A stretch of DNA of 64,000 bases from a virus (Duplodnaviria; Heunggongvirae; Uroviricota; Caudoviricetes), in IMG/VR virus record IMGVR_UViG_3300017565_000017, positions 64,779 to 128,778 of that record, one strand, 5' to 3'. Position 1 is the first letter of the stretch. Every line of letters begins with the position of its first letter. Position numbers and translations under genes: made by a program. The notes under the pieces are model-generated. The model was not told the DNA's origin. It did no database searches and saw nothing but the letters and a program-made list of their open reading frames with translations. This document shows positions 22,587 through 51,378 of the stretch, piece after piece.

Positions 22587-22624
22587 GCCCTAGTTAATGT
22601 AAAACAACATTTAGCGCCCCGGGG

Positions 22625-22653: not shown

Positions 22654-22769
22654 TGTGTTTACCGTAGCGCGCACTAAATATAGGTGCGCTATGGTGGGGG
22701 CAACCCCTAACCCTTCCGTAGTAGCAATTAAACCGGGTCTATCGTAAGACCTACAAGAGGAGAAGTACC

Positions 22770-23306: not shown

Positions 23307-23318
23307 TCGTTGCTGAAG

Positions 23319-23347
23319 CGCGAGGGGTCTTCAGACCCCTCGCTTCC
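23319..23347 (+). terminator. Intergenic hairpin / weak intrinsic terminator
   Basis: GCGAGGGGTC-TTCA-GACCCCTCGC followed by TTCC. Confidence 0.45.
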
Positions 23348-23367
23348 AAAGACTGGGAGAAATCAAA

Positions 23368-23964
23368 ATGAAAGCTCGCATCGTAGCGACCACCCTGACC
23401 CTGGCTCTGCTTGGCGCTACCGCGCAAGCTCAAGTCCTGTCCCCGAATACCGCCGTCAACAACAGCACGAACTCCAGCGCGCAGACGAACTCCAGCGCCG
23501 GGGCCACGAACGCGGGCAATGCCCAAGCGATCACCTTCAACAGCGAAGCCAACGACCGCCTGAAAACGAACCCCGCGCTCGGCGGCAACTCGTTCTACGG
23601 CTCCTTCTCCAGCGACTCCTGCATGGTCAGCGCCGGTCTGGGTGTGTCGATTGTCGGCTTCGGTACGACCGGCGTCACGCCCATCCGCGACCAACAGTGC
23701 GATATCCGCCGCTCGTTCGAACGCACGATGCAGGCGGCTGCCTCGCAGCCCAAGCGCGCCGACCAACTGACCCAGGCTGCGAACGACATGCTGTGCTCGC
23801 TCGGCGGTCCGGTCTTCAAGGCCATGAACAATCAGTCGCTGTGCAGCGACTGGGTGGTCCAGGAACAAGGTGGCGACTCCACCAAGTCCAGCCAGAAAGC
23901 CGAAATGGACTACCGGGGCAATGCCCGCTCCAGCTTCGACGACCTGTACTTCACCGGGGGCTAA
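23368..23964 (+). CDS. Secreted protein (signal peptide), Ser/Asn/Thr-rich N-region with Cys-containing C-domain
   Basis: MKARIVATTLTLALLGATAQAQ signal peptide. Four Cys. GC3-rich. Confidence 0.6.
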   Translation: MKARIVATTLTLALLGATAQAQVLSPNTAVNNSTNSSAQTNSSAGATNAGNAQAITFNSEANDRLKTNPALGGNSFYGSFSSDSCMVSAGLGVSIVGFGTTGVTPIRDQQCDIRRSFERTMQAAASQPKRADQLTQAANDMLCSLGGPVFKAMNNQSLCSDWVVQEQGGDSTKSSQKAEMDYRGNARSSFDDLYFTGG

Positions 23965-23989
23965 CCCCTCCGGCAAGGCCAGTGTAAGA

Positions 23990-24014
23990 GCCGGGTCGCC
24001 CCGGCTTTTCTTTT
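23990..24014 (+). terminator. Rho-independent terminator
   Basis: GCCGGG-TCGC-CCCGGC followed by TTTTCTTTT. Confidence 0.7.
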
Positions 24015-30206: not shown

Positions 30207-30222
30207 CCGACCAGCATAATAA

Positions 30223-30257
30223 GGGATCCTAGGGAACTAGGGTCCCTTTTTCATTTT
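30223..30257 (+). terminator. Rho-independent terminator
   Basis: GGGATCCTAG-GGAA-CTAGGGTCCC followed by TTTTTCATTTTG. Confidence 0.7.
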
Positions 30258-31316: not shown

Positions 31317-32729
31317 GTGAACTTTTCCGACAACCTTCCGATGCTGATCGGCTTGGGTATCGCAGCTTTCTTCGCACTGATTTTCGTGTGGTGGCTGCTG
31401 ACCCTGCGCACGGTCGTTCCGACCAACATGGTCCACATCGTCCAGTCTGCTGGCAAGACCACCGAATACGGTGCCAAGCGTGACTCCGGTAACGTCTACT
31501 ACAAGTGGCCGCAGTGGTTGCCGTACCTCGGTATCACGGTTACCGAATTCCCCGAGTCGATTTTCGATGTGCGCCTCGGTGCATACGAAGCCTATGACGT
31601 GGGCCGTCTGCCGTTCGTGGTCGACATCACTGCCTTCTTCCGTGTGGAAGACAGCAGCAAAGCCGCCCAGCGCGTATCCAACTTCAAGGAGCTCCACGAG
31701 CAACTGGCCTCTGTGCTGCAAGGTGCGGTCCGCCGTATCCTGGGTACGGAGCACCTGGAAAAGATCATGGAAGATCGTTCCGGCCTCGGTGACAGCTTCA
31801 CCAAGGAAGTGAACGAGCAGCTCCAGGAATGGGGCGTGACCACGGTCAAGGCCATCGAATTCATGGACATCCGGGATAGCGCCAACTCCCAGGTCATCAA
31901 GAACATCATGGCCAAGGAACAGTCCCGCATCGACCGCGAATCCCGTGAAAAGGTCGCGGCCAACACGCAACAAGCGGTGATGGCCGAAATCAACGCTCAG
32001 CGTGAAGTTGACCTCCAGCAGGAAAGCGCTCGCCAAGCGGTGGGTCAGCGCAAGGCCGAAGTGGACAAGAGCGTGGGTATCTCCCGCGAACAGTCCCAGC
32101 AGGCGGTGCAAGAACAGGCCGCGATCACGGCGGAAAAGACTCAGGCCACGGCCCGCGTCAACCAAACCAAGGCGGCTGAAATCGCCAAGGAAGTGCAGAT
32201 CATCAACGCCAACGCCCAGAAGGAAGCTGGCGTGGTGGACGCCGAGGGTAAGGCAGCTATCCAGGTGATCGAAGCCGAAGCACACGCCGACGCTAAAGTG
32301 AAGCAAGCTCGCGGTGATCTCGAATCCACGCAGCTCGCCGCGCAAGGTGTGGAAGCTACGGGTAAGGCCGAAGGTGCTGCGGAACAAGCGCGCCTCATGG
32401 CTCCGGTCGAAACCCAAATCGCTCTGGCGAAGGGTATCGCCGAAAACGAAGGCTACCAGGAATACTTGATCGCCGTTCGCGTCATCGAGAAGGACGAAGC
32501 CATCGGCAAGGCCAACGCCGAAGCTTTGGCAGACGCCGAGCTCAAGGTCATTGTCAACAGTGGCGACGTGGGCTCCGGCATCAAGAGCATCGGCGACGTA
32601 TTCAGCGCCAAGGGCGGCACGAACATCGCCGCCATGGCCTCCGCTTTGGGCCAGACCGAAGAAGGCAAGTCCTTGTTGGACAAGGTGACCGGCATGCTCG
32701 GCAACCTGGGCAACAAGTCGGATAAGTAA
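31317..32729 (+). CDS. Flotillin-like SPFH/band-7 protein
   Basis: GTG start. N-terminal TM, then an SPFH domain (..VVDITAFFRVED..) and a long Ala/Glu/Gln-rich coiled-coil (flotillin/YqiK architecture), 470 aa. Confidence 0.7.
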   Translation: MNFSDNLPMLIGLGIAAFFALIFVWWLLTLRTVVPTNMVHIVQSAGKTTEYGAKRDSGNVYYKWPQWLPYLGITVTEFPESIFDVRLGAYEAYDVGRLPFVVDITAFFRVEDSSKAAQRVSNFKELHEQLASVLQGAVRRILGTEHLEKIMEDRSGLGDSFTKEVNEQLQEWGVTTVKAIEFMDIRDSANSQVIKNIMAKEQSRIDRESREKVAANTQQAVMAEINAQREVDLQQESARQAVGQRKAEVDKSVGISREQSQQAVQEQAAITAEKTQATARVNQTKAAEIAKEVQIINANAQKEAGVVDAEGKAAIQVIEAEAHADAKVKQARGDLESTQLAAQGVEATGKAEGAAEQARLMAPVETQIALAKGIAENEGYQEYLIAVRVIEKDEAIGKANAEALADAELKVIVNSGDVGSGIKSIGDVFSAKGGTNIAAMASALGQTEEGKSLLDKVTGMLGNLGNKSDK

Positions 32730-32791: not shown

Positions 32792-33118
32792 ATGAGTCTT
32801 AAACATAGCTGGGGGCTGTATCGCCGCCATTTGGACGCAACCATGGGCGCGGGGCAGGTGTACCGTGCGCGGGGCGCGGCCCTTGTAGTGGTGGCCTGCA
32901 TGGTGCTTGCAGTCCTTACGGGGTGCTCCCGCGTGGCGACCCCGGCCACTGGCCCCGAATCTGAAGCTGTCGCTAGTGTCCGGGCTATCTATAAGCTGGA
33001 GCGCAATGGAACCACCGTAACCGAGTTCACGCTCACCGATGGTACTCCTTGCATCAAGACAAGCTACCGGGAAGCCGTAACGTGTGGCTGGGGTCTGACG
33101 TGGGGATCGACCCAATGA
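32792..33118 (+). CDS. Small lipoprotein/secreted protein, paralog A
   Basis: Lipobox LAVLTGC. C-terminal ..TPCIKTSYREAVTCGWG resembles the C-terminus of 33636-33920. Confidence 0.5.
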   Translation: MSLKHSWGLYRRHLDATMGAGQVYRARGAALVVVACMVLAVLTGCSRVATPATGPESEAVASVRAIYKLERNGTTVTEFTLTDGTPCIKTSYREAVTCGWGLTWGSTQ

Positions 33119-33642
33119 GCATACCTACCGTCAAGGACGTGGGTGTCGCAAATCCGTGCCCTCTGTGTGGGGTTCGCCCTGTAGTGTTTGAAAACGGCGA
33201 ATACGACGGTGATTTCCTGTATCCTATCCTGACGTTCCGGCTACCGGGTGTTGAATCCTGCCTCGGCCACAGCCAGCGTCTGGTCCACGCCGTGTGTCAC
33301 GAATCTGCGGGCGGCTGCGGCCACATCGCTATCGGCTTTTCCTACCAGGGTGCTGTTGAATCCTGGAATTCATATCACCAAGACCCCAGCCTGCAAGTCC
33401 GCTTTGATTTGCCACTTATGGAAGCTGCAATCAAGAAGTACGGCGAAGTGGTCAAGGAATGGTTTGCGGAGCAAGACCGCATTATCGAGGATCAGGATCT
33501 GGGTAGGCGTTTGCGCCGCATCCGCGATCACAGTGGGTACTGGGAACAGGTTGTAGCCCAGGATTGGTCCTATAATCACGAGACCCTGCGTGCTATCAAA
33601 GAAGTACGCGACAACGCCAAACAGGAAGGTAAGAAATGCTGA
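33115..33642 (+). CDS. Cys-rich hypothetical protein
   Basis: ANPCPLCG...CLGH..HAVCHESAGGCGH. Start ambiguous (33049 or 33115). Confidence 0.45.
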   Translation: MSIPTVKDVGVANPCPLCGVRPVVFENGEYDGDFLYPILTFRLPGVESCLGHSQRLVHAVCHESAGGCGHIAIGFSYQGAVESWNSYHQDPSLQVRFDLPLMEAAIKKYGEVVKEWFAEQDRIIEDQDLGRRLRRIRDHSGYWEQVVAQDWSYNHETLRAIKEVRDNAKQEGKKC

Positions 33643-33920
33643 TCAACAATCGTGGCCGTAAAGTTATCCTGGCCGGAATCATTCTGGTTGCTATCGCCTC
33701 GGCGGCGAGCGCTATGGGCGTCCATCCGGACCGTACTGCTCAGGCGGAATCTACGGTTATCCGGACCCAAGCGCCTAAGACCTATATTCTCCAGCGAGTT
33801 GGCGGAAATCGCGAGGTTGAAATCTACGAACATAGTCTGGCGGATAATACTCAGTGCGTGACTACGGTGTACCCCGGCTACGGTGTCTCCACGACGTGCG
33901 CCTGGAACACAAATAAATGA
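33636..33920 (+). CDS. Small secreted protein, paralog B
   Basis: Signal peptide ILAGIILVAIASAASA. C-terminal ..TQCVTTVYPGYGVSTTCAWN. Confidence 0.5.
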   Translation: MLINNRGRKVILAGIILVAIASAASAMGVHPDRTAQAESTVIRTQAPKTYILQRVGGNREVEIYEHSLADNTQCVTTVYPGYGVSTTCAWNTNK

Positions 33921-34150
33921 AGGCCAAGACGGTGAAGTCTCGCGCTACTCTCGGCTACTGGTTTAGCCGCCTGTTCGGCTGGCTGGCGTTCGATGGCTGC
34001 CGTCACCGCTGGGGTCCGTGGCAAACGAAAGAGCGCATAGAGACTGCCTCAATGTCACCGTTCTCCACCCGTAAGGTGGGCATGTCGCAACATCGGTACT
34101 GCGATTATTGCTCGAAGTTGCAAGTTCGTACCGTAACCTATAGACTCTGA
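33917..34150 (+). CDS. Small Cys/His protein, paralog 1 of a 4-member family
   Basis: WLAFDGCRHRWGPW...QHRYCDYCSKLQVRTVTY shares GFD-x-C-x-H...RRC-x-x-C-x-x-LQVR with three downstream ORFs. Confidence 0.5.
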   Translation: MKAKTVKSRATLGYWFSRLFGWLAFDGCRHRWGPWQTKERIETASMSPFSTRKVGMSQHRYCDYCSKLQVRTVTYRL

Positions 34151-34164: not shown

Positions 34165-35469
34165 ATGAAGATTTTGATCATCGGCAGCGGTTCTATTGGT
34201 AGCGGCATCATCCCGATGCTGTTCAAAGAATTTTCCGATTTGACTTCCGCCGATATCCATGTGATTTCCGCGGAGCCGGAAACTGAAGTCATGCGCGCGT
34301 ACAGTATCAAGGGTACGCATATTAACCTCACGGAAGCCAACTATTACCACGTATTGGACCGCCATCTGCATCCGGGGGTGTTCGTTCTCAACCTATCGGT
34401 TGACGTGAGTTCCGAGGCGGTTCTGGGTCTGTGCCAGAAGAAAGGCGCACACTATCTAGACACGTGCATCGAGCCGTGGGCTGGGGGCTATATCGGCACT
34501 AATGGCGCTCCGATTCCTAACGCCATGTTCCGTCAAAAGATCCTAGCGGCTTCTAACACTTCCGACGCTCGGGAAACCTCAATTCTGGCCTGCGGTGCGA
34601 ACCCGGGTCTGGTGTCGTGCTTTGTCAAGCAAGCACTTCTCAACATCGTTGAAGACCCCGACATGCACATCCCAGCATCCATCCTGCTCGATGGAATGCC
34701 TGCGGTTGCGCGCCATCTAGGTATCCGCACTATCCAGATCGCAGAACGTGACACCCAGGTGTTGGGTCGTCGCCTGAATCCTGGTGAATTTGCGAACACG
34801 TGGTCTGTCGATGGATTCTGCTCGGAGGGCGAACAGTACGCGGAACTTTCCTACGGCAGTCACGAGGACTACAAAGACCTGCGCATCTTTTCCCCGACGC
34901 CAGGTCGCCCGATGGCGGTCCTCCCGAAGCGCGGCTTCGAGCAGAAGGTGCATTCGTACACGCCGACCGGGGGTGAAGACTGGGCCTACATGATTTCCCA
35001 TCATGAAGCCAGTTCGATTGCTGACATGCTGACGTTGCCGGACTATCGTCCCACGGTGTACTACGCTTACCGCCCGGCAGAAGCGGCTGTCCGGAGCATT
35101 GAAAACCATTTGGCTCGCAATTGGGCCGAGCCTAAGTCCAAAACCATCTTCCAAGGTACTGCTGGTTACGATGAGCTCGGTGTCCTGATCATTGCAGACG
35201 GCTTTACGTACTGGTACGGCAGTACCCTAAATACTGCGCAAGCCCGCGCCCTAGTGCCGTATAATGGCCCTACAACGCTACAGGTAACGGCTACCATTGC
35301 CGCCGCCATAAAGCATATTTTGAAAGCGCCGTTCCAAGGCGTAATCGAGGCGGAACAGTTGCCGTTCCATACGATTATGGAACAGGCCCGTCCGTATCTG
35401 GGCCACGTTGCCGGGTATGAAGTGGACTGGAGGCCGGGTTTCCAACTTGAGCAGTTCCTCATCAAATAA
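34165..35469 (+). CDS. Saccharopine-dehydrogenase-family NAD(P)-binding enzyme, homospermidine synthase-like
   Basis: N-terminal Rossmann motif MKILIIGSGSIGSG. 434 aa. Length and architecture fit HSS/carboxynorspermidine dehydrogenase-type enzymes. SD GAAGGAG. Confidence 0.5.
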   Translation: MKILIIGSGSIGSGIIPMLFKEFSDLTSADIHVISAEPETEVMRAYSIKGTHINLTEANYYHVLDRHLHPGVFVLNLSVDVSSEAVLGLCQKKGAHYLDTCIEPWAGGYIGTNGAPIPNAMFRQKILAASNTSDARETSILACGANPGLVSCFVKQALLNIVEDPDMHIPASILLDGMPAVARHLGIRTIQIAERDTQVLGRRLNPGEFANTWSVDGFCSEGEQYAELSYGSHEDYKDLRIFSPTPGRPMAVLPKRGFEQKVHSYTPTGGEDWAYMISHHEASSIADMLTLPDYRPTVYYAYRPAEAAVRSIENHLARNWAEPKSKTIFQGTAGYDELGVLIIADGFTYWYGSTLNTAQARALVPYNGPTTLQVTATIAAAIKHILKAPFQGVIEAEQLPFHTIMEQARPYLGHVAGYEVDWRPGFQLEQFLIK

Positions 35470-35492
35470 GTTTTTCTGGGAGAAGCCGTAAA

Positions 35493-35936
35493 ATGAAAAA
35501 GTCACGTTCCGTGGCGTTAGTCTTGTTGGGTCTGGGTGCTGCTGTTACCCTCAGTGGCTGCGAAGACTCGAAACAGAATGTCAATGCCAAGCGTAATCAG
35601 TACGCCAATCGCGCTGATTGCGTGGCAGATTGGGGCGATAAGGACTGCCCCCGTGAAGCCCAACGCACGAGCGGCGGTGGCTTCATGTACATGGGTCCTC
35701 ACTACTTCTGGTCCGGCTCCAGCCCTATGGTTGTCGGTTCAGACGGTAACGCCCGCGCAGCTTCCGGAACGTATCTCAACCAAGCGGGGGCCACGGCTGC
35801 CACTACCAGCCGCTCCTCTATCGGCTCCGTGTCGAGCGTAAGCTCAGTGAGCTCAAGCTCCATCAGCCGTGCCGCCCCATCTGTGAGTCGTAGCGGCTTT
35901 GGTTCCACTTCCAGTTCCATGTCTTCAGGAGGCTAA
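35493..35936 (+). CDS. DUF1190 (YgiB/YjfM-like) lipoprotein
   Basis: Lipobox LSGC. NRADCVADWGDKDCPREAQ and C-terminal SRSGFGSTSSSMSSGG mirror E. coli YgiB (EDCVAEFGEGQCQQ ... RGGFGE..SRSMGG). Confidence 0.6.
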   Translation: MKKSRSVALVLLGLGAAVTLSGCEDSKQNVNAKRNQYANRADCVADWGDKDCPREAQRTSGGGFMYMGPHYFWSGSSPMVVGSDGNARAASGTYLNQAGATAATTSRSSIGSVSSVSSVSSSSISRAAPSVSRSGFGSTSSSMSSGG

Positions 35937-35937
35937 T

Positions 35938-36306
35938 ATGAGTTGCGAACGCCCTGGATTTTTCGGTTCTATCCTTGACGCGGCTGCTGACGAAGCAGAG
36001 CGCCAGATACAGCTCCTATTCGCGGATAAGCTTCGCGGTACGGGGTTCGATATCTGCATGCACGTATTCGGCCCGTGGTCCACACCCGTGGTCCGTTCCG
36101 TTCACGAGCATGACGTGTGCGCCTCTATCACACGTATCGTCGGCCAAGAACAAGTCTCGCACCGCACGTGCCGGTACTGCTCCCACGAAGAGCACCGTGT
36201 CCAGGCACTGCAAACTCCGGAATGGGTTGACGTGCCGTGGTACGATCGCAACCGCGTGGCGCTCATGGACGAATTCCGCCAGCCCTTGGATGTGAATGCA
36301 AAATGA
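35938..36306 (+). CDS. Cys/His small protein, paralog 2
   Basis: Strong SD CAGGAGG. GFDICMHVFGPWS...HRTCRYCSHEEHRVQAL. Confidence 0.5.
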   Translation: MSCERPGFFGSILDAAADEAERQIQLLFADKLRGTGFDICMHVFGPWSTPVVRSVHEHDVCASITRIVGQEQVSHRTCRYCSHEEHRVQALQTPEWVDVPWYDRNRVALMDEFRQPLDVNAK

Positions 36307-36554
36307 TACGCTGGCTCCGGCTTCTACTACGCTGGATTGGGTTCGATGTGTGTCCGCACACGTACTCCAGATGGGAGGACGAGTACACCCATAGCTATGA
36401 GGTTACGACGCAGGGTGCAATGTTTGACACTTACGGGGAGAGCTCCTCAAAGCCGCATACGCATCTGCGCCAAACTCGTCGCTGTCACGAGTGCTACAAG
36501 CTGGAGATTCGCCATATTAACCTGAAGAAGTCTAAACAGGTGCTAGACCTATGA
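36304..36554 (+). CDS. Cys/His small protein, paralog 3
   Basis: IGFDVCPHTYSRWEDEY...LRQTRRCHECYKLEIRHINLKK. Confidence 0.55.
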
Positions 36555-36799
36555 TCCGTCTGATAAAGCTTTTCCTGAAGGGTCTAGGGTTCGACGTATG
36601 TGCTCACGAGTATTCGGCCTGGAAGGATGAATATGAGACGGGCCTCCGGACAACCCATTACGGTTTGTTCAAGAATACGTATCGCGAAGAGCGTGAGTAT
36701 GTGCGCCTGACCCATATCCGGCAAACTCGTCGGTGCTACACCTGCTCCAACCTTCAGGTTCGTCACATTGACCTTAAGAATCAAGGGATTAATCTCTAA
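36551..36799 (+). CDS. Cys/His small protein, paralog 4
   Basis: LGFDVCAHEYSAWKDEY...IRQTRRCYTCSNLQVRHIDLKN. About 45% identical to paralog 3. Confidence 0.55.
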   Translation: MIRLIKLFLKGLGFDVCAHEYSAWKDEYETGLRTTHYGLFKNTYREEREYVRLTHIRQTRRCYTCSNLQVRHIDLKNQGINL

Positions 36800-36801
36800 C
36801 C

Positions 36802-38001
36802 ATGAAACGCATCGACGTTACCCCGCGTCCCAACCTCGAAGAACGTTTGACCAAACGCGGTCTTTCGTTCTGGGCCTGGGACAACTACTGGCACGAAGGT
36901 GCCGCGTACAAGTTCACCCCCACGCAAATCGACCGCTTGGAGGAGAGTGTGGCTGAGCTCCAGACCATGTGTTTGGCGGCAGCCGAGCATGTAGCGAAAT
37001 CTGATGACCTACTGAAGAAGCTGCGGATTCCGGAGCCCTTCTGGGAGCCGGTGCGTCGTAGCCTTGGCCGCAAGGATTTCTCGCTGTATGGTCGCTTCGA
37101 CCTCGCCTGGGACGGCACCGGCTGGCCCAAGATGCTGGAATACAACGCCGATACTCCTACGTCGCTGCTCGAATCGGCCGTCTGCCAGTGGGATTGGCTG
37201 GAAGACGTGTTTCCAGGGGCCGACCAATTCAACTCTCTGCACGACAAACTGCTGGATCGCTGGACCGAGTTGCGCAAGGGCGGTGTGAAAAAGGTTCACT
37301 TCGCCTCCACCCGCGATGTTGACCAGGAATATTTGGCAACCCTGGAAGGCGAAGCTCGTGAGAAGTATCTTCACGATGAGAGCATCAACGAGGAAGACTG
37401 GGTGTGCTGCCATTACTTGATGGACACCGCTGTTCAGGCGGGTCTGGAAGTTGAATGGCTGGCCGTGCAAGACCTGGGTTACGACGCTAACAACCACGTG
37501 TTCGTTGACCTTCAGGACAACCCCATCGAAGCGCTGTTCAAGCTATACCCGTGGGAATGGCTTATGCGTGAAGAGTTCGGTTCCAAGATCAGCGGTTGCA
37601 AGACTCGCTTTATCGAGCCAATGTGGAAGTCGATCCTCTCCAATAAGGGTCTGCTGGCCGTGCTGTGGGAATTGTATCCGGGCCACCGCCTACTCTTGCC
37701 CGCGTACTTCGAACCGTACAAGCTCGTGTCCTACGCCAAGAAGCCCCTCCTGAGCCGCGAAGGCGCTAACGTTACGCTGGTGGAAAACGGCAAGGAGCTG
37801 GAACGTGGCGCTGGCCTTTACGGGCAAGAAGGTTATGTGTATCAGGGTCTGTGCCAACTCCCGAACTTCGGAGGCCGCTATCCGGTTATCGGCGCGTGGG
37901 TTGTTGGCAACGAGCCTGCCGGTATCTGCATCCGTGAAGACAACAAGCGTGTCACTACCAACATGAGCAACTTCGTTCCTCACCTGTTTACCCCGGAGTA
38001 A
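36802..38001 (+). CDS. Glutathionylspermidine synthase-like (YgiC/YjfC-type) ATP-grasp-related ligase
   Basis: KSILSNKGLLAVLWELYPGHRLLLPAYFEP matches the GspS/YgiC signature (..LSNK.LL..LW.L.P.H..LLP.YF). 399 aa. Confidence 0.7.
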   Translation: MKRIDVTPRPNLEERLTKRGLSFWAWDNYWHEGAAYKFTPTQIDRLEESVAELQTMCLAAAEHVAKSDDLLKKLRIPEPFWEPVRRSLGRKDFSLYGRFDLAWDGTGWPKMLEYNADTPTSLLESAVCQWDWLEDVFPGADQFNSLHDKLLDRWTELRKGGVKKVHFASTRDVDQEYLATLEGEAREKYLHDESINEEDWVCCHYLMDTAVQAGLEVEWLAVQDLGYDANNHVFVDLQDNPIEALFKLYPWEWLMREEFGSKISGCKTRFIEPMWKSILSNKGLLAVLWELYPGHRLLLPAYFEPYKLVSYAKKPLLSREGANVTLVENGKELERGAGLYGQEGYVYQGLCQLPNFGGRYPVIGAWVVGNEPAGICIREDNKRVTTNMSNFVPHLFTPE

Positions 38002-38005
38002 TCCT

Positions 38006-38227
38006 ATGGACATGCTGCCGTATCTTTCACTGCTTCTGGGCCTAGTTTCCTGGCTGCTGGTTCTCAAGAGCCAGTCGATAAATCGCCAGCTCAAGGAACA
38101 CCCGACACAGGAGCTCCTTGATAAATCCCAGCGTATAGTCTACGCTCTGTACGTGGTAATGATGTTCCTCCTGGTCGCCCTGGGGTTCTTCGTATACCGC
38201 CTTGTATTGATAGTGACTGGGGCGTAA
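38006..38227 (+). CDS. Small membrane protein
   Basis: 73 aa, 2 TM. Confidence 0.4.
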   Translation: MDMLPYLSLLLGLVSWLLVLKSQSINRQLKEHPTQELLDKSQRIVYALYVVMMFLLVALGFFVYRLVLIVTGA

Positions 38228-38228
38228 C

Positions 38229-38471
38229 ATGACTATTACGTTCTGGACAATTGCTATCTGCATTCTCTCGGCTATCGCCCTCTCCGTGATGGTCCTGCAA
38301 ATGCGGGCGGATTACTATCTGGAACGCGCCCCTGACACTGAGGAAACGTACCTCAGATTTACCCGGGTTGTGAAGCTGTATCGTCGGGCTATTCAAGCCA
38401 TGTACATATACGTCACAATCCTATTCATCATCGCCGTCATAGACGTGGCGTTCCTCCGCACCCCTACCTGA
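38229..38471 (+). CDS. Small membrane protein
   Basis: 80 aa, 2 TM. Confidence 0.4.
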   Translation: MTITFWTIAICILSAIALSVMVLQMRADYYLERAPDTEETYLRFTRVVKLYRRAIQAMYIYVTILFIIAVIDVAFLRTPT

Positions 38472-38493
38472 ACTTATTCAACCTGGAGTCAAT

Positions 38494-38880
38494 ATGACCG
38501 CATTTCTCAACTTCCTCGCGTACTTCGGCACCGGCCTCGTGGTCCTCATGGTGTACATGGTGGCCTACAACAAGCTGACCCCCTACGATGAATGGAAGGA
38601 AATCAAGGACGGCAACATGGCTGCGGCCCTGGCCTTCGGGGGCTCGATGGTTGGCTTCGTGCTGCCGCTGCTGTCCGCTATCTTCTTCACCCACAGCCTC
38701 ATCGAAATGATCAAGTGGGGCGTTATCACGGGCGTCGTGCAGCTTCTGACCTTCGAGATTGCTCACCGACTGCGTGGCTTCGGCGACTGCGTCAAGAACC
38801 GTAATACGGCGGGCGGTATGTTCCTGGCCCTGCTGTCCATCGCGGTCGGCCTGCTCAACGCTGTGTCGATCTCCTACTGA
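38494..38880 (+). CDS. DUF350 (YjfL-like) membrane protein
   Basis: 128 aa, 4 TM. Composition and architecture match the YjfL family that accompanies YjfC-type ligases. GC3-rich. Confidence 0.5.
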   Translation: MTAFLNFLAYFGTGLVVLMVYMVAYNKLTPYDEWKEIKDGNMAAALAFGGSMVGFVLPLLSAIFFTHSLIEMIKWGVITGVVQLLTFEIAHRLRGFGDCVKNRNTAGGMFLALLSIAVGLLNAVSISY

Positions 38881-39424: not shown

Positions 39425-40819
39425 GTGGACTCTGGAGCCATTGTGCCCGATTTTACTTTCTTACATGGATTATCTACCGTAGCTATCGGCGGCCTGATTG
39501 CTGCCGTAGTCGCAGGTTGGAAACAGGTCAAGGGCTTCTTTGCCCAAATTGCTTCCCTAGTGGTAGTGACTGCAAATATCGACAGCCGTATCGCATCTTC
39601 TGTGTACATTCACCTGCGCCAGAAGTATAAGATTGTGCCGTCCGGTATCCACCGTTATGTATCTCGCCACGCTAAAATCAAGGGCGATGCGTTCAACATT
39701 CCGATCCCGTATCATTTGCCCAACTCTACCGCGATTTACGTCAGCAAGCGTGGGGTTCCGCTGATTGTCAGTCACAGCGATTCCATGCAGATTCGAGGTC
39801 TGCGAGGCACCATCAATTTCAAGAAGTTGATTGCACAGGCCACCAATGAAATGCGGGAGCGCAACAACAGCGGGTCCTCCAGGAAAGCCCAACTCAGCAA
39901 CACAAGTCGCTTCCAGGTCTACAAGGTCATGGGCGCTGAGAAGTATGTCGGGGACATGCAGCGCAAGAAGCAAGGCACTCTCAGTGCCTCTGAGGGGGAC
40001 CCTGTTCCGGATTCTATCGACAGTAGCTCGTCTAATATAGGTGTTAATCTGCTGGTCGATAAGTCTTGGATGTTCTCGCAGGACGACTTCGAGCAGGCCT
40101 CCCAGGAAGACCCGTTGCGTGGTCTGTATTTCGAGCCCCACGTTCTGGAACACTTCCAAAAGGCTCGACGCTGGATGGAAATGGGTAAGTGGTATAGCGA
40201 CCGAAACATTCCGTGGCGTCGGGGTTGGCTGCTCCACGGTCCGGGCGGTACGGGTAAATCCAGCATTGCCCGTGGTCTTGCCATCACTCTTGGTATCCCT
40301 GTTTACCAGTTCTATCTTGGGACCCTCAGCGACCAGGAGTTCGCCCAGAGATGGTCAAACATGAGCACCCCGTGCGTAGCGCTCTTCGAAGACTTCGACA
40401 ATATCTTCCATGGTCGTGAGCCTGTTTCCGAGCACACGATGTTGTCTTTCGACACAGTGCTCAACCACATCAGCGGCGTTGACTCCACTGACGGTGTGTT
40501 CCTAGTTGTGACAACCAACTGCCTGGACAAAATCGATCCGGCGATGGGCGTCTCCCACGAAGGGGGCTCCTTGTCTACGCGCCCTGGCCGGATTGACACG
40601 GTTATCGAAGTGGGGCTCATGGACGAGGCGTGCCGCCGTGCGCTTGTCATGAGCATCCTGCGGGACTGGCCGGACCTCGTGGAACACGCAGTCGGCCACA
40701 CTTTCGGTATGACTCCAAGCCAAGTGCAAGAGTATTGCGTGCAGCAAGCCTTCGAGCGTCTGGATCAGGAAGAGAAAGCGCGTCCAAAGGAACATGGCAT
40801 GATTAGCGAAGCTTCCTAG
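39425..40819 (+). CDS. AAA+ ATPase, membrane-anchored (paralog 1)
   Basis: N-terminal TM. Walker A GPGGTGKSS, Walker B VALFEDFDN, and VVTTN..IDPA...RPGRID (sensor/arginine finger). Confidence 0.65.
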   Translation: MDSGAIVPDFTFLHGLSTVAIGGLIAAVVAGWKQVKGFFAQIASLVVVTANIDSRIASSVYIHLRQKYKIVPSGIHRYVSRHAKIKGDAFNIPIPYHLPNSTAIYVSKRGVPLIVSHSDSMQIRGLRGTINFKKLIAQATNEMRERNNSGSSRKAQLSNTSRFQVYKVMGAEKYVGDMQRKKQGTLSASEGDPVPDSIDSSSSNIGVNLLVDKSWMFSQDDFEQASQEDPLRGLYFEPHVLEHFQKARRWMEMGKWYSDRNIPWRRGWLLHGPGGTGKSSIARGLAITLGIPVYQFYLGTLSDQEFAQRWSNMSTPCVALFEDFDNIFHGREPVSEHTMLSFDTVLNHISGVDSTDGVFLVVTTNCLDKIDPAMGVSHEGGSLSTRPGRIDTVIEVGLMDEACRRALVMSILRDWPDLVEHAVGHTFGMTPSQVQEYCVQQAFERLDQEEKARPKEHGMISEAS

Positions 40820-41340: not shown

Positions 41341-41366
41341 CGCTGTACCGTAAATAGTTTTATATG

Positions 41367-41390
41367 GCCCCCAACTCGGGGGCTTTTTTT
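41367..41390 (+). terminator. Rho-independent terminator
   Basis: GCCCCC-AACTC-GGGGGC followed by TTTTTTT. Confidence 0.8.
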
Positions 41391-41404: not shown

Positions 41405-41650
41405 ATGAAGATTGAAGACTATAAACGGCTAGAATCGGCTGCCCGTGAAGTGTGTCTAGCTAGGGGTCAAAACCCTGATGAGCAAGTAGGTACAGAGCGT
41501 GCTTCTTGGGAAGATGGTCCAACGTACGACGTCTATTACTGTTCCACACGCTGGCGCAACGTAGCTCAAGAGCTTTGGGATTTTGAGGTCAAGGGGCGTG
41601 CTCTGTTTAATCTTCGTGCATACTCAGCAGAAGGTCCGAATGACAAATGA
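41405..41650 (+). CDS. Hypothetical small protein
   Basis: 81 aa. Confidence 0.45.
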   Translation: MKIEDYKRLESAAREVCLARGQNPDEQVGTERASWEDGPTYDVYYCSTRWRNVAQELWDFEVKGRALFNLRAYSAEGPNDK

Positions 41651-41849
41651 CGATGACCCCAGCGGTGGCCTAGATAGCCCGTGCGTGGCCATCTGCTCTA
41701 CACTCTACGACGACATTTGTCGTGGTTGCGGGCGCACTGCTATGGAAGTGGCGGAATGGGTGTTCTATACACCTGAGGAAAAGAAACAGGTCTGGATTCG
41801 GATTAAGTCGCAAGGCTATCCGACTAGAGATTTAGGGAAGAAGTATTGA
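41640..41849 (+). CDS. Small Cys-containing protein
   Basis: MTNDDDPSGGLDSPCVAICSTLYDDICRGCGRTAMEVAEW.. Confidence 0.4.
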   Translation: MTNDDDPSGGLDSPCVAICSTLYDDICRGCGRTAMEVAEWVFYTPEEKKQVWIRIKSQGYPTRDLGKKY

Positions 41850-43131: not shown

Positions 43132-44583
43132 ATGAGCAAATCGCTCTCCGAAACCAAGCAAGAAATCGCCGTCGCCGACATCGTCTATCACGGCGAGAAG
43201 CTGACCCTGCCGGAAGGCATGACCCTCCCCCAAGCCATCGACCTGCTCTCCCGCCGCCTGAAGTACGAGCAGGAAGAAACCGCGTTCAGCGATGCGTTCG
43301 ACGCCTTCCCCCTCGACGGCGCGTATGCCCTGCAACAAGTCCTGACCAAGAAGTACGGCTGGGCTCAAGCCATCCCGACCCCGGGCTTCTTCGGCAAGAA
43401 CCCGCCGCGCATGCTGCGCATCGAAATCAAGCCCGGTGTCTTCACCGAAGCTCCGTGGGGCCGCTTCTCGCTGCCCAACATCAAGGGCTACATCCAGTGC
43501 GGCGCCGAGCAGAAGAAGGGCCGCTGGGTGTTCAGCCTGAGCGCCAACATCCTGCGCCTCAACGAGCGTGAAGTCCGCTCCCTGTTCGACGAAGTCCGTT
43601 CCTACCTCAAGGAAAACTCGATCTACAAGGGCCAGGCCATCAAGATCCGCTTCCGCGACGAAAACGGCGAAACGCTGGAAATGCCGGAACCGCAGTTCAT
43701 GGACACCAGCAAGATCGACCCGCACGGCCTGATCTACGCCAAGGACGTCCAGGACGCCGTGGAAACCAACCTGTTCACGCCGATCCGTCGCGTCAAGGAC
43801 TGCCTCGCCAACGGCGTGCCGGTCAAGCGCGGTGTTCTGCTGGGCGGCACGTTCGGCACCGGCAAGACCCTGGCGGCGACCGTTGCCTCGCGTCTGGCTG
43901 TCGATCACGGCATCACCTACCTGTACGTCCCCCGCGCCGACGAACTGTCCGACGCCATCGAATTCGCCAAGCAGTACCAGTCGCCGGCATGCGTCATCTT
44001 CTGCGAAGACATCGACCGCGCCGTGGCCGGTGACCGCAGCGTCAAGATGGACGACATCCTCAACATCCTGGACGGCATCGACACCAAGAGCTCGAACATC
44101 ATCACGGTGGTCACGACCAACGACCTGCTGTCGATCAACCCGGCTCTGCTGCGCCCCGGCCGTCTGGACGCCGTCATCAACGTGACGCCGCCCGATGCCC
44201 AGGCCGTCGAAAAGCTCATCCGCTTCTACGCCGGTCAGGCCATCGACGCCGACACCGACCTGACCGAAGCCGGTGTCGAGCTGGCCTCCGCCAAGACCAT
44301 CCCGGCTGTCATCGCCGAAGTGGTCAAGCGTGCCAAGCTCAGCGAACTCAAGCTGCTGCCCGAAGGTTCGATCGTCACCAAGCTCGGCCAAGCGGCCATC
44401 CTGGAAGCCGCCAAGACCATCTCGGCGCAGGTCAAGCTCCTGCAAGAGAAGGAGCCCGAGCAAATCACGACCATCGAGCAAATCGTGGCCGCTGCTTCCC
44501 GTTCCTCGGCGCAGGAAGTGTTCGACGCCAACAAGAAGGGTCTGCTCAACGACATCGACAAGCTCATCGCGGCCCGCGTCTAA
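43132..44583 (+). CDS. AAA+ ATPase (paralog 2), soluble, with about 230-aa N-domain
   Basis: LLGGTFGTGKT (Walker A), VIFCEDIDRA (Walker B), VVTTNDLLSINPALLRPGRLD. Extremely GC3-rich. Confidence 0.65.
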   Translation: MSKSLSETKQEIAVADIVYHGEKLTLPEGMTLPQAIDLLSRRLKYEQEETAFSDAFDAFPLDGAYALQQVLTKKYGWAQAIPTPGFFGKNPPRMLRIEIKPGVFTEAPWGRFSLPNIKGYIQCGAEQKKGRWVFSLSANILRLNEREVRSLFDEVRSYLKENSIYKGQAIKIRFRDENGETLEMPEPQFMDTSKIDPHGLIYAKDVQDAVETNLFTPIRRVKDCLANGVPVKRGVLLGGTFGTGKTLAATVASRLAVDHGITYLYVPRADELSDAIEFAKQYQSPACVIFCEDIDRAVAGDRSVKMDDILNILDGIDTKSSNIITVVTTNDLLSINPALLRPGRLDAVINVTPPDAQAVEKLIRFYAGQAIDADTDLTEAGVELASAKTIPAVIAEVVKRAKLSELKLLPEGSIVTKLGQAAILEAAKTISAQVKLLQEKEPEQITTIEQIVAAASRSSAQEVFDANKKGLLNDIDKLIAARV

Positions 44584-46544: not shown

Positions 46545-46629
46545 TGGTGCCCCGAGCCGGACTCGAACCGGCACGCCCGAAGGCTAGGGATTTTAAGTCC
46601 CCTGTGACTACCAATTCCACCATCGGGGC
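46545..46629 (-). tRNA. tRNA-Leu(TAA)
   Basis: Manual fold. Acceptor GCCCCGA/TCGGGGC, anticodon loop CTTAAAA, long variable arm, T-loop TTCGAGT, CCA encoded. Confidence 0.85.
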
Positions 46630-46634
46630 TTTAA

Positions 46635-46982
46635 TTAAACTTTTTCCAGTTCCTTCTCGTTTCGTTCTTCCACAAGCAAAGACTCGTCACCTAGCGGCAC
46701 CAACCGAGAATCTGAGATCGGTCCCAGCGGAGTGTGCTTCCTAGTTGTCTTGTGCAGACTTGGGTACAGATGCTTGTAGACGAGCAATCCGGACTGAGCT
46801 TCAACCAGCCACAGGAACCCGTGGTTGCCAATCGGATACCCGAAATAGATGTTATGGGCAACGCGAGGCTTGTCACCCCAAGGCTCTATGACCCGTACTA
46901 TTTTGCCGCAATTATCCAAACTGCCATTGGCAGGATTCGGATATGCGATAAGCGCTAGATCACCGGGTTTGACGTTGCTCAT
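46635..46982 (-). CDS. Hypothetical protein
   Basis: 115 aa. Confidence 0.45.
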   Translation of the reverse strand: MSNVKPGDLALIAYPNPANGSLDNCGKIVRVIEPWGDKPRVAHNIYFGYPIGNHGFLWLVEAQSGLLVYKHLYPSLHKTTRKHTPLGPISDSRLVPLGDESLLVEERNEKELEKV

Positions 46983-47222
46983 GGTACATTCCAGTATTAC
47001 TTGTAGATCACGCCGTCAGTCGAATTCCGGCTTGATCGCCGAGAGGCACGCTGCGGGAAGCGTTGCGACGTTCATGCAATTTTCCTTATCCAGCCACTGA
47101 ATTTCAATGGTGTCGTCCGCTTCACAGACGTGGGTAACCGACAATTCAGGGGAGCCTGAATTCAGGTACACTACATCGCCGACTTTGATTCTCGTGATAT
47201 CGACCATACTTACTCCGTAAGG

Positions 47223-47311
47223 TGGTGCGCGGGAGGGGACTCGAACCCCTATGCCCTGTTGATGGCGGCAGGACCTAAACCTGCTGCGTCTACCGATTTC
47301 GCCACCCGCGC
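47223..47311 (-). tRNA. tRNA-Leu(TAG)
   Basis: Acceptor GCGCGGG/CCCGCGC, anticodon loop TTTAGGT, long variable arm, CCA encoded. Confidence 0.8.
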
Positions 47312-47315
47312 TCGT

Positions 47316-47693
47316 TTACTTCAGTGCCTTGTACATAGCCCGGAAGGCTCGCACAAGAGCATTCTTACTCTTGTTGTTCAAACAGCTATCCTTATGAATA
47401 GCATCAACGATAGCCTCTTCGCCATCTTGTCCCTGAACTGCCTTCTCATCCGGCCACGCGACGTAGCTCTCAATTCGAAGCCTAGCCCAGAAGGCGAGAA
47501 TAGCCAGTGTCGGGGCATCACACATATGGCGGCGCGAACTCGACATGATCTTAGTGATCGTGGGTCGCGCTACATGCGTCTGGTCCGACACAGCCTGAGC
47601 CGTTAGGTTACGACTCTTGACAACTTCCCGGAAATCGTTGGAGAACGACTCTAGGTCGAAATACGGGAAGTTATCCTTGCTGCTCATTTTGGA
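47316..47693 (-). CDS. XRE-family helix-turn-helix regulator
   Basis: NLTAQAVSDQTHVARPTITKIM is a typical HTH. Start likely at the internal MSSKDNF. Confidence 0.45.
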   Translation of the reverse strand, partial: SKMSSKDNFPYFDLESFSNDFREVVKSRNLTAQAVSDQTHVARPTITKIMSSSRRHMCDAPTLAILAFWARLRIESYVAWPDEKAVQGQDGEEAIVDAIHKDSCLNNKSKNALVRAFRAMYKALK

Positions 47694-47984
47694 TACGATC
47701 CAGAAACTCACCGATTTCAGTGATCTTGAGTCGTGCAAACTCAAGGCCGATACCAGTGTTGGTCAGGCTATGAACCGTGAACACGCTGTCCAACTGGCGG
47801 AACAGCACGTACAGAGCATCATCGCCTGTCCGGTTTTTGATGCGGGCGAAATCCGTGCCCCCGCTGTACGGAAGCACGAAATCCGCGCGTTCTTCCACGG
47901 AGGTAGGCAAAGTGTTTGCCGCCCAGACGATGTCCTGCTTACCGATGCGAACATAAAACGTCATAGACATTGCTCCTTAAATCT

Positions 47985-48061
47985 TGGTGCTGGTTGTCAG
48001 ACTCGAACTGACGACCTCCTGTTTACAAGACAGGTGCTGCTACCAACTGAGCTAAACCAGC
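47985..48061 (-). tRNA. tRNA-Thr(TGT)
   Basis: GCTGGTT..AACCAGC acceptor, D-arm GCTCAGTTGGTAGAGC, anticodon loop CTTGTAA. Confidence 0.85.
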
Positions 48062-49557
48062 ATTTCTTACTCTTCCGACTTCTCAATCTTCTTGATAAGG
48101 CGGTCAAAGCGTTTGCGCATTGCCCGCATTTCGCGACGTCGAGCATCGCGTTGACGCGGGAAGCAGCACGGGCATTTGAACCCTCCGCCACCGACCTTAG
48201 CGTTGACACAAAGAATGAAGAAGTTTTTGTTTCTGATCATGGTGAGGTCCTCTGTTAGATACCTAATTCATGATCATCTCCTTGTCCAATTAGTGTATAT
48301 TAACGGCTTGGATTGCGGTTAGCCCACCATCCAAACAATCCGCCCAATATAGCACCTAGCCATTGAGCAGCCTCTCGATACTCAATGGATAGGAGCCACG
48401 TGGCGAGTATCCCGAGTAGGATACTGCCACCCATAGCTGTGGGAAGAATCTTCTTAAGTAGATTCATCTTCAGGCTCTGCCTGAGGCCCGTGGAACCGAC
48501 GTAGTATGTACGCAAACACCGCCCCGTAGAACAGAGCCAAGGTTGCGTCCACCACGTACACCCTAGGTTGTGTCAAGACTCCATAATGGTGGAGCACTTG
48601 CCACAAAATCTCCATGGAGACAAACCCAAACAGAAGGCCGTATAGAATAGCGCGAAGTCGAGTCATAGGATTTTCTTGTAGGCGGGGACCATCACACACC
48701 CGACTGCCGTGCCGTACAGAGCGCCAAAAATAGCAGACGCTTTGTAGAACGCAATTCTGTAGAAGGGGTCCACGGGGCCAATGACGAAGGCCCACAGAAC
48801 CATACCGCACATGAAGACAGAGAAGAGAGCTCCGCCGATAGCCCACAAAGTGACTAGTGCGACCTTACGTGTCTGGAAGCGTTTCATCAGTTCAGCTCGT
48901 TAGCAGCCGGAGGCAGATACTCAAAGCGGAACGTGTCAGGCTTTTCCGCCGTCTCGTCCTCAGACCCCAGAGATACCTGCAAGTGGTTCTGTTTCAATAG
49001 GAGCTGGTACTTCGGGCTCTTCATGAAGTTGTAGAACGTTTGAATCGAGTCTTCCGTACCCCTATCCATTGTCATGCGCAGGTCCAGTACCTGACCCGGC
49101 TCTAGCGTCACTACGCGCTCCAGCACCCGGTCCATAATCATGGACACGAATTCTTCCGCAGAATCGGTGTCAACCGAATGGGACTCGGTGTTGCTTGCGG
49201 TGGTTTGAGGTACGTTCATTATGGATCCTTAGTGGATAATCGGCTGATCTTTGACAAAGAACCGCAGGGCATACTGTGAGCCCGGAATGTCCGAGGGTTC
49301 CGCCTCAACAAGTTCCACTGCCAAACCCGCCCCGTCAATGCGACTGAACGCAGGCTCTTCAGCACAGGCGTCCAAAGCACGTTGAGCGGTGGCACGCATG
49401 TCCGGGGACTCAGGATTTATGCGTAGGACAACGTCCATGGTCACGCCCGCCTCAAGCCCATCTTCCGGGAGTTCTTCCAGAACATGGTCAACAATAGCAG
49501 CTACTAGAGACGCAGCATCGTTAGTTTTGTGCCGAATAAACGCCATCACGGTGTCCT

Positions 49558-49631
49558 TGGAATCGGGTGCGGGAGTCGAACCCACCTACGAAGATTTGCA
49601 GTCAACTGCCTAACCCATCGGCCAACCCGAC
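49558..49631 (-). tRNA. tRNA-like; anticodon loop CTGCAAA (Cys-GCA?) with two mismatches in the anticodon stem
   Basis: Good acceptor and T-arm (GTGGG-TTCGACT-CCCGC). The anticodon stem GTTGA/TCTTC pairs poorly. Possibly a pseudo-tRNA. Confidence 0.4.
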
Positions 49632-50358
49632 TCAGAGTTTACTTGTCTTGAGGGCCACCGTAGTCACTGGCGTCCCACCCACCTTCTGCACTAGCTTGCT
49701 CCCGCGGATTGCTGTAATACGCCGCCGCGTTTGCCTGTTGCTGTTGCATTGGTACAGGCCCATTATAGTACATATCGGCGGCATTAGCAAATTTGTGCCC
49801 GCCTTCCTGGCGTGTGGAAAAGGTTTCGGTTTCTAGATCAAACTCGAACTCCTGTTGCTCACGTGCTTCCTGATGGCGACGTATTGCCTCAGGAGCCTGC
49901 CATGCCATAGCAACATTAGGAAGCTCCTTCATGTCGTTGTAGTACGCCACGACATACTTCCCTTGAGTAAGAAAGCGACCCTTGTCTTGCTGACAATCAG
50001 TCAGAACCGGCATCAGTCGGTAGCTATACTCGTACCCAGGTAGGCTCTGGTGCTCTTTGATAAAAGACACTCGAGAATCACTGTCCACCCATAGCGAACT
50101 TAGTTCACGCAGCACATCTTCAGAGACAAAGATAATAATCTTCTTAAAGGTTTGTCGCGACGTGTGGCGCATAATTTGGGAGTGGAACTCCTCAATGTCA
50201 ACCCAGTGATGGGCGGTGCGCTCGGAACCGTCGTCCAGAAGATGCAGGATAGGATTTTGAATATCCATGTGAGCCTCATTCGTATCTTGAACAGACAAAA
50301 AGAAACCCGCACTAGGCGGGTTTAAAAGATGCAAGTACAATGACTTACACCACGGAAG

Positions 50359-50435
50359 TGGTCGGCGGGACAGGATTCGAACCTGCGACCCTCTGCTCCC
50401 AAAGCAGACGCGCTACCGGACTGCGCTACCCGCCG
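50359..50435 (-). tRNA. tRNA-Pro(TGG)
   Basis: CGGCGGG acceptor, anticodon loop TTTGGGA. Confidence 0.85.
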
Positions 50436-51350: not shown

Positions 51351-51378
51351 AGGGTATGTTTATTTACGGTATGCCCTA

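Follow-up and report, generated by a model that had tools for sequence, protein, structure and literature searches.

A phage operon linking a homospermidine synthase to a YgiC/YjfC-type ligase carries a clade-specific family of small Cys/His proteins

The YgiBC and YjfLMC systems are conserved bacterial envelope modules of obscure function. In the tolC-ygiB-ygiC operon of Escherichia coli and Salmonella, a DUF1190 lipoprotein is encoded directly upstream of a YgiC-family ligase, and in the E. coli yjfKLMC cluster YjfL belongs to the DUF350 family. E. coli YgiC and YjfC are described as peptide-spermidine ligases, not glutathionylspermidine synthetases, in PMC11762307 (citing Pederick 2023 and Sui 2012). 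These enterobacterial modules contain no homospermidine synthase (HSS), and spermidine is thus their presumed amine. A cluster that does include HSS was depicted by Li et al. (PNAS 2023, PMC9992855, Fig. 4B) as an hss-gss arrangement of Achromobacter phage Motura and beta-Proteobacteria, and glutathionylhomospermidine was proposed. In addition, polyamine operons associated with PspA or band-7 proteins combine an ATP-grasp "SpermGS" with DUF350 and DUF1190 proteins (Ravi et al., mSystems 2024). Here, we analyzed a related gene cluster in a 64,000-nucleotide stretch of viral DNA (IMG/VR record IMGVR_UViG_3300017565_000017, positions 64,779 to 128,778), hereafter called the window. The cluster encodes HSS, a DUF1190 lipoprotein, a YgiC-like ligase, and a DUF350 membrane protein, together with four small Cys/His proteins (mini-proteins A to D) and two tiny transmembrane (TM) proteins (Table 1). 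Our preferred interpretation, to which we assign a probability of roughly 55%, is that the locus represents a horizontally shared bacterial operon that makes homospermidine and ligates polyamine to a peptide in connection with the envelope, with the mini-proteins as accessories.

The genes are tightly packed on the plus strand between 33.9 and 38.9 kb of the window, in the order mini-protein A, HSS, DUF1190, mini-proteins B, C, and D, ligase, two 2-TM proteins, and DUF350, with ATGA start-stop overlaps at several junctions. An initial annotation, made from the nucleotide sequence, had recognized these six co-directional gene classes, and its assignments to HSS, DUF1190/YgiB-like, YgiC/YjfC-like, and DUF350/YjfL-like families were all borne out by Pfam and structure alignments. 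It was likewise correct that the DUF1190 termini mirror those of YgiB and that there are two tiny TM proteins, each of which has two hydrophobic segments, and its idea of peptide-polyamine conjugation fits what PMC11762307 says of E. coli YgiC and YjfC. The system is not "fused," as it had been called, but made up of separate genes that are closely packed or overlap. Nor did it hold that no described phage carries such a module with a polyamine enzyme: Motura has HSS-DUF1190-ligase-DUF350, the cluster in the figure of Li et al. (2023).

Motura indeed carries the same four genes in the same order as the window, with amino acid identities of 57% for the ligase, 55% for DUF350, 39% for HSS, and 38% for DUF1190. 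Unlike the window, Motura and the bacterial operons lack mini-proteins, separate tiny TM proteins, and a 23-amino-acid (aa) insertion in the ligase. The Motura DUF350 protein has an N-terminal TM extension in place of the separate tiny TM proteins, and a TAXI-type binding protein is encoded upstream of its module, whereas the window has an SPFH protein there. The operons of Ravi et al. share with the window a ligase resembling glutathionylspermidine (GSP) synthetase, a YjfL/DUF350 protein, a DUF1190 lipoprotein, and a band-7 protein, and add polyamine enzymes. However, the bacterial PspA/band-7 variants contain an AdoMet decarboxylase with a polyamine oxidase, or a PspA-CesT dyad, where the window has HSS; in the window, the SPFH gene lies 1.4 kb upstream of the module with four small genes between. 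The core four-gene module is already known in Motura and in bacteria. New here are the four mini-proteins, the two tiny TM proteins, and the ligase insertion, all confined to a phage clade that is represented, besides the window, by contigs of 257 kb (L003) and 95 kb (L012), each of the three being a diverged lineage.

The first enzyme of the module has the Pfam domains Sacchrp_dh_NADP (9e-20) and Sacchrp_dh_C (3e-13) and aligned with the solved HSS structure 6Y87 (E=6e-80, residues 2-424 on 12-447), with similar alignments for 2PH5 and 4PLP. We compared it with the catalytic and ionic-slide residues listed for BvHSS by Krossa et al. (2016), using an alignment to 4PLP, whose chain index runs 2 ahead of the native numbering. 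All ten were identical in the window HSS, comprising eight catalytic or substrate residues (Asn162, Glu210, Trp229, Glu237, His296, Glu298, Tyr323, and Asp361) and the two ionic-slide residues (Asp94 and Glu117). Given this complete active site, conversion of putrescine to sym-homospermidine is expected, and the enzyme is very probably active. The HSS of Ralstonia phage phiRSL1, 34% identical to that of the window, has been shown biochemically to make homospermidine (Li et al., PNAS 2023, PMC9992855). HSS is rare among phages: in 50,697 phage records it was detected only in Motura and phiRSL1, and a single-protein pattern scan of IMG/VR returned no close relatives.

The ligase is a stand-alone protein in which PF03738 spans residues 14-395 of 399, and Pfam detected no amidase (CHAP) domain. 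Its best solved relatives are YgiC (7UK8, 6e-106) and YjfC (7UK6, 7e-86), both aligned over the full length at 44-48% identity (44% for YgiC of the Salmonella tolC-ygiB-ygiC operon), and 92 columns were invariant in an alignment of phage, bacterial, and YgiC ligases. Li et al. (2023) interpreted the hss-gss linkage of Motura differently, such that the ligase would be a true glutathionyl-(homo)spermidine synthetase and glutathionylhomospermidine a redox buffer or polyamine store. Besides that linkage (PMC9992855), the Pfam match to GSP_synth (5e-136) and the label of the matching PHROG, "glutathionylspermidine synthase," agree with such an activity. However, the ligase is far closer to YgiC and YjfC than to GspS or TryS, to which it aligned at 1e-29 to 1e-33 over the C-terminal 125 aa (one-third) only. 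With PRK10507, the NCBIfam GspS equivalog, for which the cutoff is 882 bits, it scored 143.7 bits and only its C-terminal part aligned, and PMC11762307 and PMC12568646 report YgiC and YjfC as peptide-spermidine ligases devoid of GSP synthetase activity. A glutathionyl-(homo)spermidine synthetase would also give no reason why a lipoprotein and a membrane protein are its obligatory partners. We therefore consider this activity doubtful for the window ligase. A bifunctional GspS/Gss enzyme was rejected as a candidate on the same bit score and the missing CHAP domain.

Within the ligase, an acidic insertion of 23 aa at approximately aa 172-194 (VDQEYLATLEGEAREKYLHDESI) is nearly invariant in the three lineages that bear mini-proteins, with the consensus VDQEYL(A/K)TLEGEAREKYL(H/N)DESI. 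It is missing from the ligases of Motura, phiRSL1, the bacterial operons, and phiAS4, as well as from YgiC. In a rough neighbor-joining tree, which carries no support values, the ligases of the window clade group with those of Motura, phiRSL1, and a 424 kb viral contig.

To place the module among its relatives, we scanned bacteria at one genome per species and obtained 53 loci with a ligase 37-57% identical to that of the window. Approximately 20 of these, from beta/gamma-proteobacterial genomes (mostly Burkholderiales and Rhodocyclales with some Cellvibrionaceae), have HSS, DUF1190, ligase, and DUF350 in this order, tightly packed and with no intervening genes. Among viruses, 143 phage records encode a YgiC-like ligase, as do at least 80 contigs of IMG/VR; of these 80, DUF1190 was adjacent in 46, DUF350 in 22, and HSS in 2, namely, Motura itself and the 424 kb contig. 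The latter (L074; IMGVR_UViG_3300017565_000001, 424,529 bp) encodes a contiguous HSS-DUF1190-ligase-DUF350 series at 3285-6530, without mini-proteins, and its ligase groups with that of phiRSL1 in the rough tree. In phiRSL1, a DUF1190-like lipoprotein precedes the ligase (56% identical to the window's), but hss and the ligase gene are unlinked, approximately 34 kb apart, and neither an adjacent DUF350 gene nor mini-proteins are present. T4-like phages have versions of their own, as in Aeromonas phage phiAS4 (L010, 630-4655), with a Band_7 lipoprotein, DUF1190, three small open reading frames (ORFs), the ligase, and a T4-type antiholin. In Acinetobacter phage Lazarus (L011, 1637-4269), the genes lie near rIIA and encode an SMR-family transporter followed by DUF1190, a TM protein of 94 aa, and the ligase.

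The DUF1190 protein has a lipobox (LSGC, residues 20-23) and ends in ...SRSGFGSTSSSMSSGG, a C terminus whose RGGFG...GG motif is common to Salmonella YgiB; YgiB is longer (223 aa) and includes a hydrophobic Gly/Met-rich segment. The DUF350 protein covers positions 4-133 of the 133-position profile with residues 2-126 and has at least three hydrophobic segments. Both proteins have PHROG counterparts. A comparison of the two tiny TM proteins gave no support for their being paralogs (E=0.78).

The conserved DUF1190 C terminus raises the question of whether the lipoprotein itself is the acyl substrate, its RGGFG-x7-10-Gly-Gly-COOH end mimicking the glycine of glutathione and being polyaminated before or during export. 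In agreement with this idea, GG forms the C terminus of 28 of the 33 ligase-adjacent DUF1190 proteins, YgiB and phage copies among them. DUF1190 is moreover the most constant neighbor of the ligase (46/80 viral contigs), and in the bacterial loci its stop codon abuts or overlaps the ligase ATG, coupling the two translationally. In contrast, the remaining five C termini are GS, SG, SS, or AT, and the C terminus of a lipoprotein would be periplasmic whereas an ATP-dependent ligase would be cytoplasmic. Most importantly, the Gly-Gly codons (GGAGG in the window; GGAGG, GGGAGG, or GGCGG overall) lie 5-10 nt before the next start codon, both in the window (35922-35940) and in bacterial loci (L020-L048), and double as the Shine-Dalgarno sequence of the following gene. 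Because this offers a nucleotide-level reason for their conservation, we downgraded the lipoprotein as a substrate and regard that role as improbable. The gene that follows DUF1190 also differs: in the window, three mini-protein genes (866 nt) separate DUF1190 from the ligase, whereas in bacteria and Motura the two abut.

The mini-proteins share the invariant pattern F-D-x-C-x-H...W...Q-x-R-x-C-x-x-C...R, which does not recur elsewhere in the 64 kb window. When orthologs from a second lineage were added (nine sequences), the residues that stayed invariant were C, H, W, R, C, C, and R. None of the four has a TM segment; C and D begin with a strongly amphipathic basic helix, whereas A is very basic and B acidic. 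The initial annotation had listed four tandem paralogs of about 80 aa within 34165-38880. Four paralogs do exist, but only three are in tandem (35938-36799), and the fourth (33917-34150) falls outside those bounds; the length is right for A, C, and D (77, 83, and 82 aa) but not for the divergent B (122 aa). As for YgiC homologs beside such proteins, the ligase is common in phages, usually next to DUF1190, but mini-proteins accompany it in this clade only. A suggested graspetide or other RiPP (ribosomally synthesized and posttranslationally modified peptide) logic was not sustained: GSP_synth is the only Pfam hit of the ligase and its nearest structures are YgiC and YjfC, which sets it apart from microviridin-type (MdnB/C-like) ATP-grasp macrocyclases, and the mini-proteins have no leader-core layout. 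As candidate graspetide precursors they were rejected, with invariant residues C, H, W, R, C, C, and R and a predicted helix plus three-stranded sheet instead of a Thr/Ser/Lys-Asp/Glu core. Superinfection exclusion, or defense more generally, found no support either, as no PADLOC model matches the module proteins; the sole PADLOC match was a generic AAA hit on a neighboring ATPase.

Searches for relatives of the mini-proteins returned little beyond the clade. No significant family was detected in Pfam, PHROGs, NCBIfam, or PADLOC, and neither a tblastn search with mini-protein D against all phage records (E<=10) nor a degenerate-pattern scan of IMG/VR recovered any homolog. A word-indexed search of 5.8 billion proteins yielded relatives from the same phage clade only, and the extra relatives in a full HMMER search of 1.84 billion representatives were only weakly similar phage proteins of 50-67 aa (phrog_12110/21493; profile E=1e-5 to 6e-4), from contigs without any ligase. 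These proteins share the pattern C-[WF]-H-x-W...W...R-x-C-x-x-C-x-K-L-Q-x-R. The mini-proteins differ from them in length (77-122 versus 50-67 aa), in having an extra amphipathic helix at the N terminus, and in the longer loop between their knuckles. They gave no direct match to the PHROG 12110/21493 models and are the sole members found beside a ligase. An AlphaFold2 model of mini-protein D comprised an N-terminal helix and a three-stranded sheet (pLDDT 62) and had no fold match in BFVD or the PDB at E<=0.001.

The four paralogs are kept at the same positions in the window, L003, and L012. Ortholog identity is 75-81% for A and 39-57% for B to D (39-47% for B and C), versus 70-92% for the enzymes. 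The ratio of nonsynonymous to synonymous substitution rates (dN/dS) was 0.04-0.10 for orthologs of A and 0.04-0.26 in all measurable cases; synonymous sites are largely saturated across the lineages, and the ratio is not estimable for B and C. These comparisons mark the mini-proteins as real, maintained genes, three of which evolve fast.

Two further explanations concern what these small proteins do. In one, the mini-proteins and tiny TM proteins are functionally unrelated "morons," small phage genes that duplicated locally and accumulated where the gene junctions of an acquired operon permitted it. The same DUF1190-ligase junction has independently gained small ORFs in phiAS4-like and Lazarus-like phages, and those ORFs are unrelated to the mini-proteins. 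Furthermore, distant mini-protein relatives occur in unrelated phage contexts, the identities of B and C (39-47%) are low next to those of the enzymes, and the number of tiny TM proteins differs between lineages. However, three lineages with saturated synonymous sites agree in the number, order, and position of the four paralogs, the start-stop overlaps imply cotranslation with the module, and the conserved ligase insertion co-occurs with the mini-proteins. An origin as unrelated morons is thus possible, though we favor it less than an accessory role.

In the other, the mini-proteins are substrates of the ligase in a RiPP-like or protein-polyamination pathway, receiving homospermidine on their C termini or acidic side chains. 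Three of their genes immediately precede that of the ligase and show ATGA-type coupling, the module contains every family member in these genomes (four) at positions fixed in three diverged lineages, and the ligase insertion is specific to the clade; YgiC-type enzymes, moreover, act on peptide carboxylates. Set against this, the ligase is retained without mini-proteins in Motura, phiRSL1, T4-like phages, 80 IMG/VR contigs, and approximately 50 bacterial loci, and a motif search of the module neighborhoods (7-15 kb each) of Motura, phiRSL1, phiAS4, and Lazarus detected no mini-protein-like ORFs. The C termini vary among paralogs and orthologs (YRL/YRM, VNAK/RALA, VLDL/TRSD/ARKQ, and GINL/GIHL), the conserved residues are putative metal ligands on a predicted folded beta-sheet, and the ligase family is not of the graspetide type. 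A general substrate role is therefore very unlikely, and the mini-proteins are best read as neither a conserved ligase substrate nor RiPP precursors. In a narrower version, the ligase would have been retargeted in this clade, with the mini-proteins docking on the 23-aa insertion either as homospermidinylated substrates or as adaptors that steer polyamination toward particular host or phage proteins at the inner membrane. Given the exclusive location of the mini-proteins in the module and the ligase insertion, we keep a substrate role under consideration, but such retargeting would still be a long shot.

Taken together with the accessory role that we prefer, a working model can be outlined. HSS would supply homospermidine from putrescine, and the ligase would, at the expense of ATP, form an amide between this or another polyamine of the host and the carboxylate at the C terminus of a peptide. 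Coupling of the product to the envelope, by export, binding, or both, would fall to the DUF350 and DUF1190 proteins. The mini-proteins would be co-expressed, zinc-ribbon-like accessories at the operon junctions, possibly adaptors or regulators that contact the acidic insertion of the ligase. For the phage, the most likely use would be conditioning of the host's envelope and polyamine pool over the course of a long jumbo-phage infection. Consistent with a link to the envelope, an SPFH protein is encoded upstream and the surrounding block is rich in TM proteins and lipoproteins; comparable neighbors recur in the T4-like phages (Band_7 and an antiholin in phiAS4, the SMR transporter in Lazarus). 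This block parallels the SPFH/PspA-linked polyamine operons thought to stabilize membranes under stress, and the recurrent SPFH/PspA neighbors of the ligase would point to membrane homeostasis during infection.

Several points weigh against this model. The activity of the phage ligases is presumed from that of their homologs, we infer both the "peptide" substrate and the envelope role, and transport by DUF350 and ligand binding by DUF1190 are presumed roles. The zinc-ribbon-like label of the mini-proteins derives mainly from their ligand pattern, the model of D being of moderate quality and lacking a fold match. Moreover, all four members of the family in these approximately 250 kb genomes sit inside one module, and this exclusive location argues for a closer functional tie than the word "accessory" conveys. 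The co-occurrence of insertion and mini-proteins is suggestive of such a tie, although it amounts to one evolutionary event only.

A set of 23 tRNA genes, together with genes for baseplate and tail, confirms that the window comes from a phage. The tRNA genes lie on the minus strand at 46545-63920 with small ORFs scattered among them and cover 20 amino acids, with Leu, Gln, and Arg represented twice each, as is typical of jumbo phages that encode a tRNA set. Baseplate, tail-fiber, and transglycosylase genes are at 0.2-15.8 kb. The baseplate wedge protein shares 57% identity with its Motura counterpart, 53% with that of phiRSL1, and 49% with those of Burkholderia phages BcepSauron and BcepSaruman. 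By such protein comparisons, the window phage is a jumbo myophage of the Motura/phiRSL1 group, distantly related to both. A megablast search with the 5 kb locus against the 50,697 phage records gave no nucleotide-level match, so that there is no close sequenced isolate of this phage among them.

The module is part of a co-directional block of approximately 11 kb, in which the first gene is at 30267 and the last ends at 41340. Strong terminator-like hairpins lie at both ends of the block and no convincing terminator within it, and the block may be one transcription unit; the start-stop overlaps of the mini-protein genes imply their cotranslation with the module. Besides the module, it encodes the SPFH protein, which is also found upstream of the module in L003 and L012, two paralogous small lipoprotein or secreted proteins, a Cys-rich protein, and a TM-anchored AAA ATPase.

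Table 1. Features of the module and its surrounding block (window coordinates). L003 and L012 are the 257 kb and 95 kb contigs of the same phage clade.
Feature	Coordinates	Strand	Basis or remark
Terminator-like hairpin, 12-bp stem + T-run	30221..30248	+	Likely upstream boundary of ~11 kb co-directional membrane-protein block
SPFH/Band_7 (flotillin-like) protein	31317..32729	+	Pfam Band_7 5.6e-17; N-terminal TM segment 4-36
Small lipoprotein-like protein	32792..33118	+	Paralog of 33636-33920
175-aa Cys-rich protein	33115..33642	+	Lar-like zinc ribbon 18.6 bits, below cutoff 28.6
Small secreted or membrane-anchored protein	33636..33920	+	Paralog of 32792-33118; stop overlaps mini-protein A start
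Mini-protein A, 77 aa, basic, C-x-H...C-x-x-C	33917..34150	+	Fourth paralog, upstream of HSS
Homospermidine synthase (HSS), NAD-dependent, predicted putrescine to sym-homospermidine	34165..35469	+	Pfam, solved-structure alignment
DUF1190 (YgiB/YjfM-like) lipoprotein	35493..35936	+	PF06693 29.3 bits vs cutoff 22
Mini-protein B, 122 aa, acidic, divergent, C-terminal extension	35938..36306	+	Paralog motif
Mini-protein C, 83 aa, amphipathic basic N-terminal helix, then C-x-H...C-x-x-C	36303..36554	+	Start overlaps B stop (ATGA)
Mini-protein D, 82 aa	36551..36799	+	Start overlaps C stop (ATGA)
YgiC/YjfC-family ATP-dependent acid-amine (putative peptide-polyamine) ligase	36802..38001	+	GSP_synth 5e-136; 399 aa
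Tiny 2-TM protein 1, 73 aa	38006..38227	+	Two hydrophobic segments; also in L003, L012
Tiny 2-TM protein 2, 80 aa	38229..38471	+	Two hydrophobic segments; in L012, absent in L003
DUF350 (YjfL-like) polytopic inner-membrane protein	38494..38880	+	PF03994 2.5e-34; phrog_29907
Terminator-like hairpin, 6 GC pairs + T7	41366..41384	+	Likely downstream boundary of block

Additional features were observed around the module. The paralogous small proteins at 32792-33118 and 33636-33920 (BLASTP E=1e-4) flank the 175-aa Cys-rich protein; a lipobox-like LTGC occurs in one and a signal or anchor segment in the other, and both terminate in a conserved D-x-T-x-C...C-x-W motif. The Cys-rich protein between them (33115-33642) contains CPxCG and CxxxxGGCGH motifs, its weak match being to the Lar restriction-alleviation zinc ribbon, and is 48-50% identical to counterparts in the related phages, where it is also encoded upstream of mini-protein A. 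Two AAA-type ATPases are encoded on the plus strand, at 39425-40819 (with an N-terminal TM segment) and at 43132-44583. The second belongs to phrog_10440 over its full length (1e-216). Its homologs in Escherichia, Pseudomonas, and Klebsiella phages of much smaller size share 59-62% identity with it and are annotated variously as FtsH-like, metalloprotease, or helicase. A small Cys-rich ORF at 41583-41849 (plus strand) occupies the position of a PF06945 (DUF1289) gene in L003 and L012. Local G+C content peaks at 0.61 at 22001-24000, versus approximately 0.52-0.55 elsewhere, in a region with long overlapping ORFs on both strands.

The locus bears on the ligases of the YgiBC and YjfLMC envelope modules. 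Physical linkage of the ligase to HSS, seen before in Motura and in the 424 kb contig of an uncultivated virus, is here extended to a further viral lineage, which strengthens the inference that this operon subtype uses homospermidine as its amine. For finding possible protein partners of YgiC-type ligases, the mini-proteins of this clade and the co-occurring ligase insertion provide a compact, testable handle. If the mini-proteins are unrelated to the module, the locus would be another auxiliary polyamine/envelope operon of a jumbo phage, decorated with small ORFs. If instead the ligase has been retargeted, it would constitute a virus-encoded system for protein-polyamine conjugation and would reveal the kind of physiological substrate on which YgiC and YjfC act.

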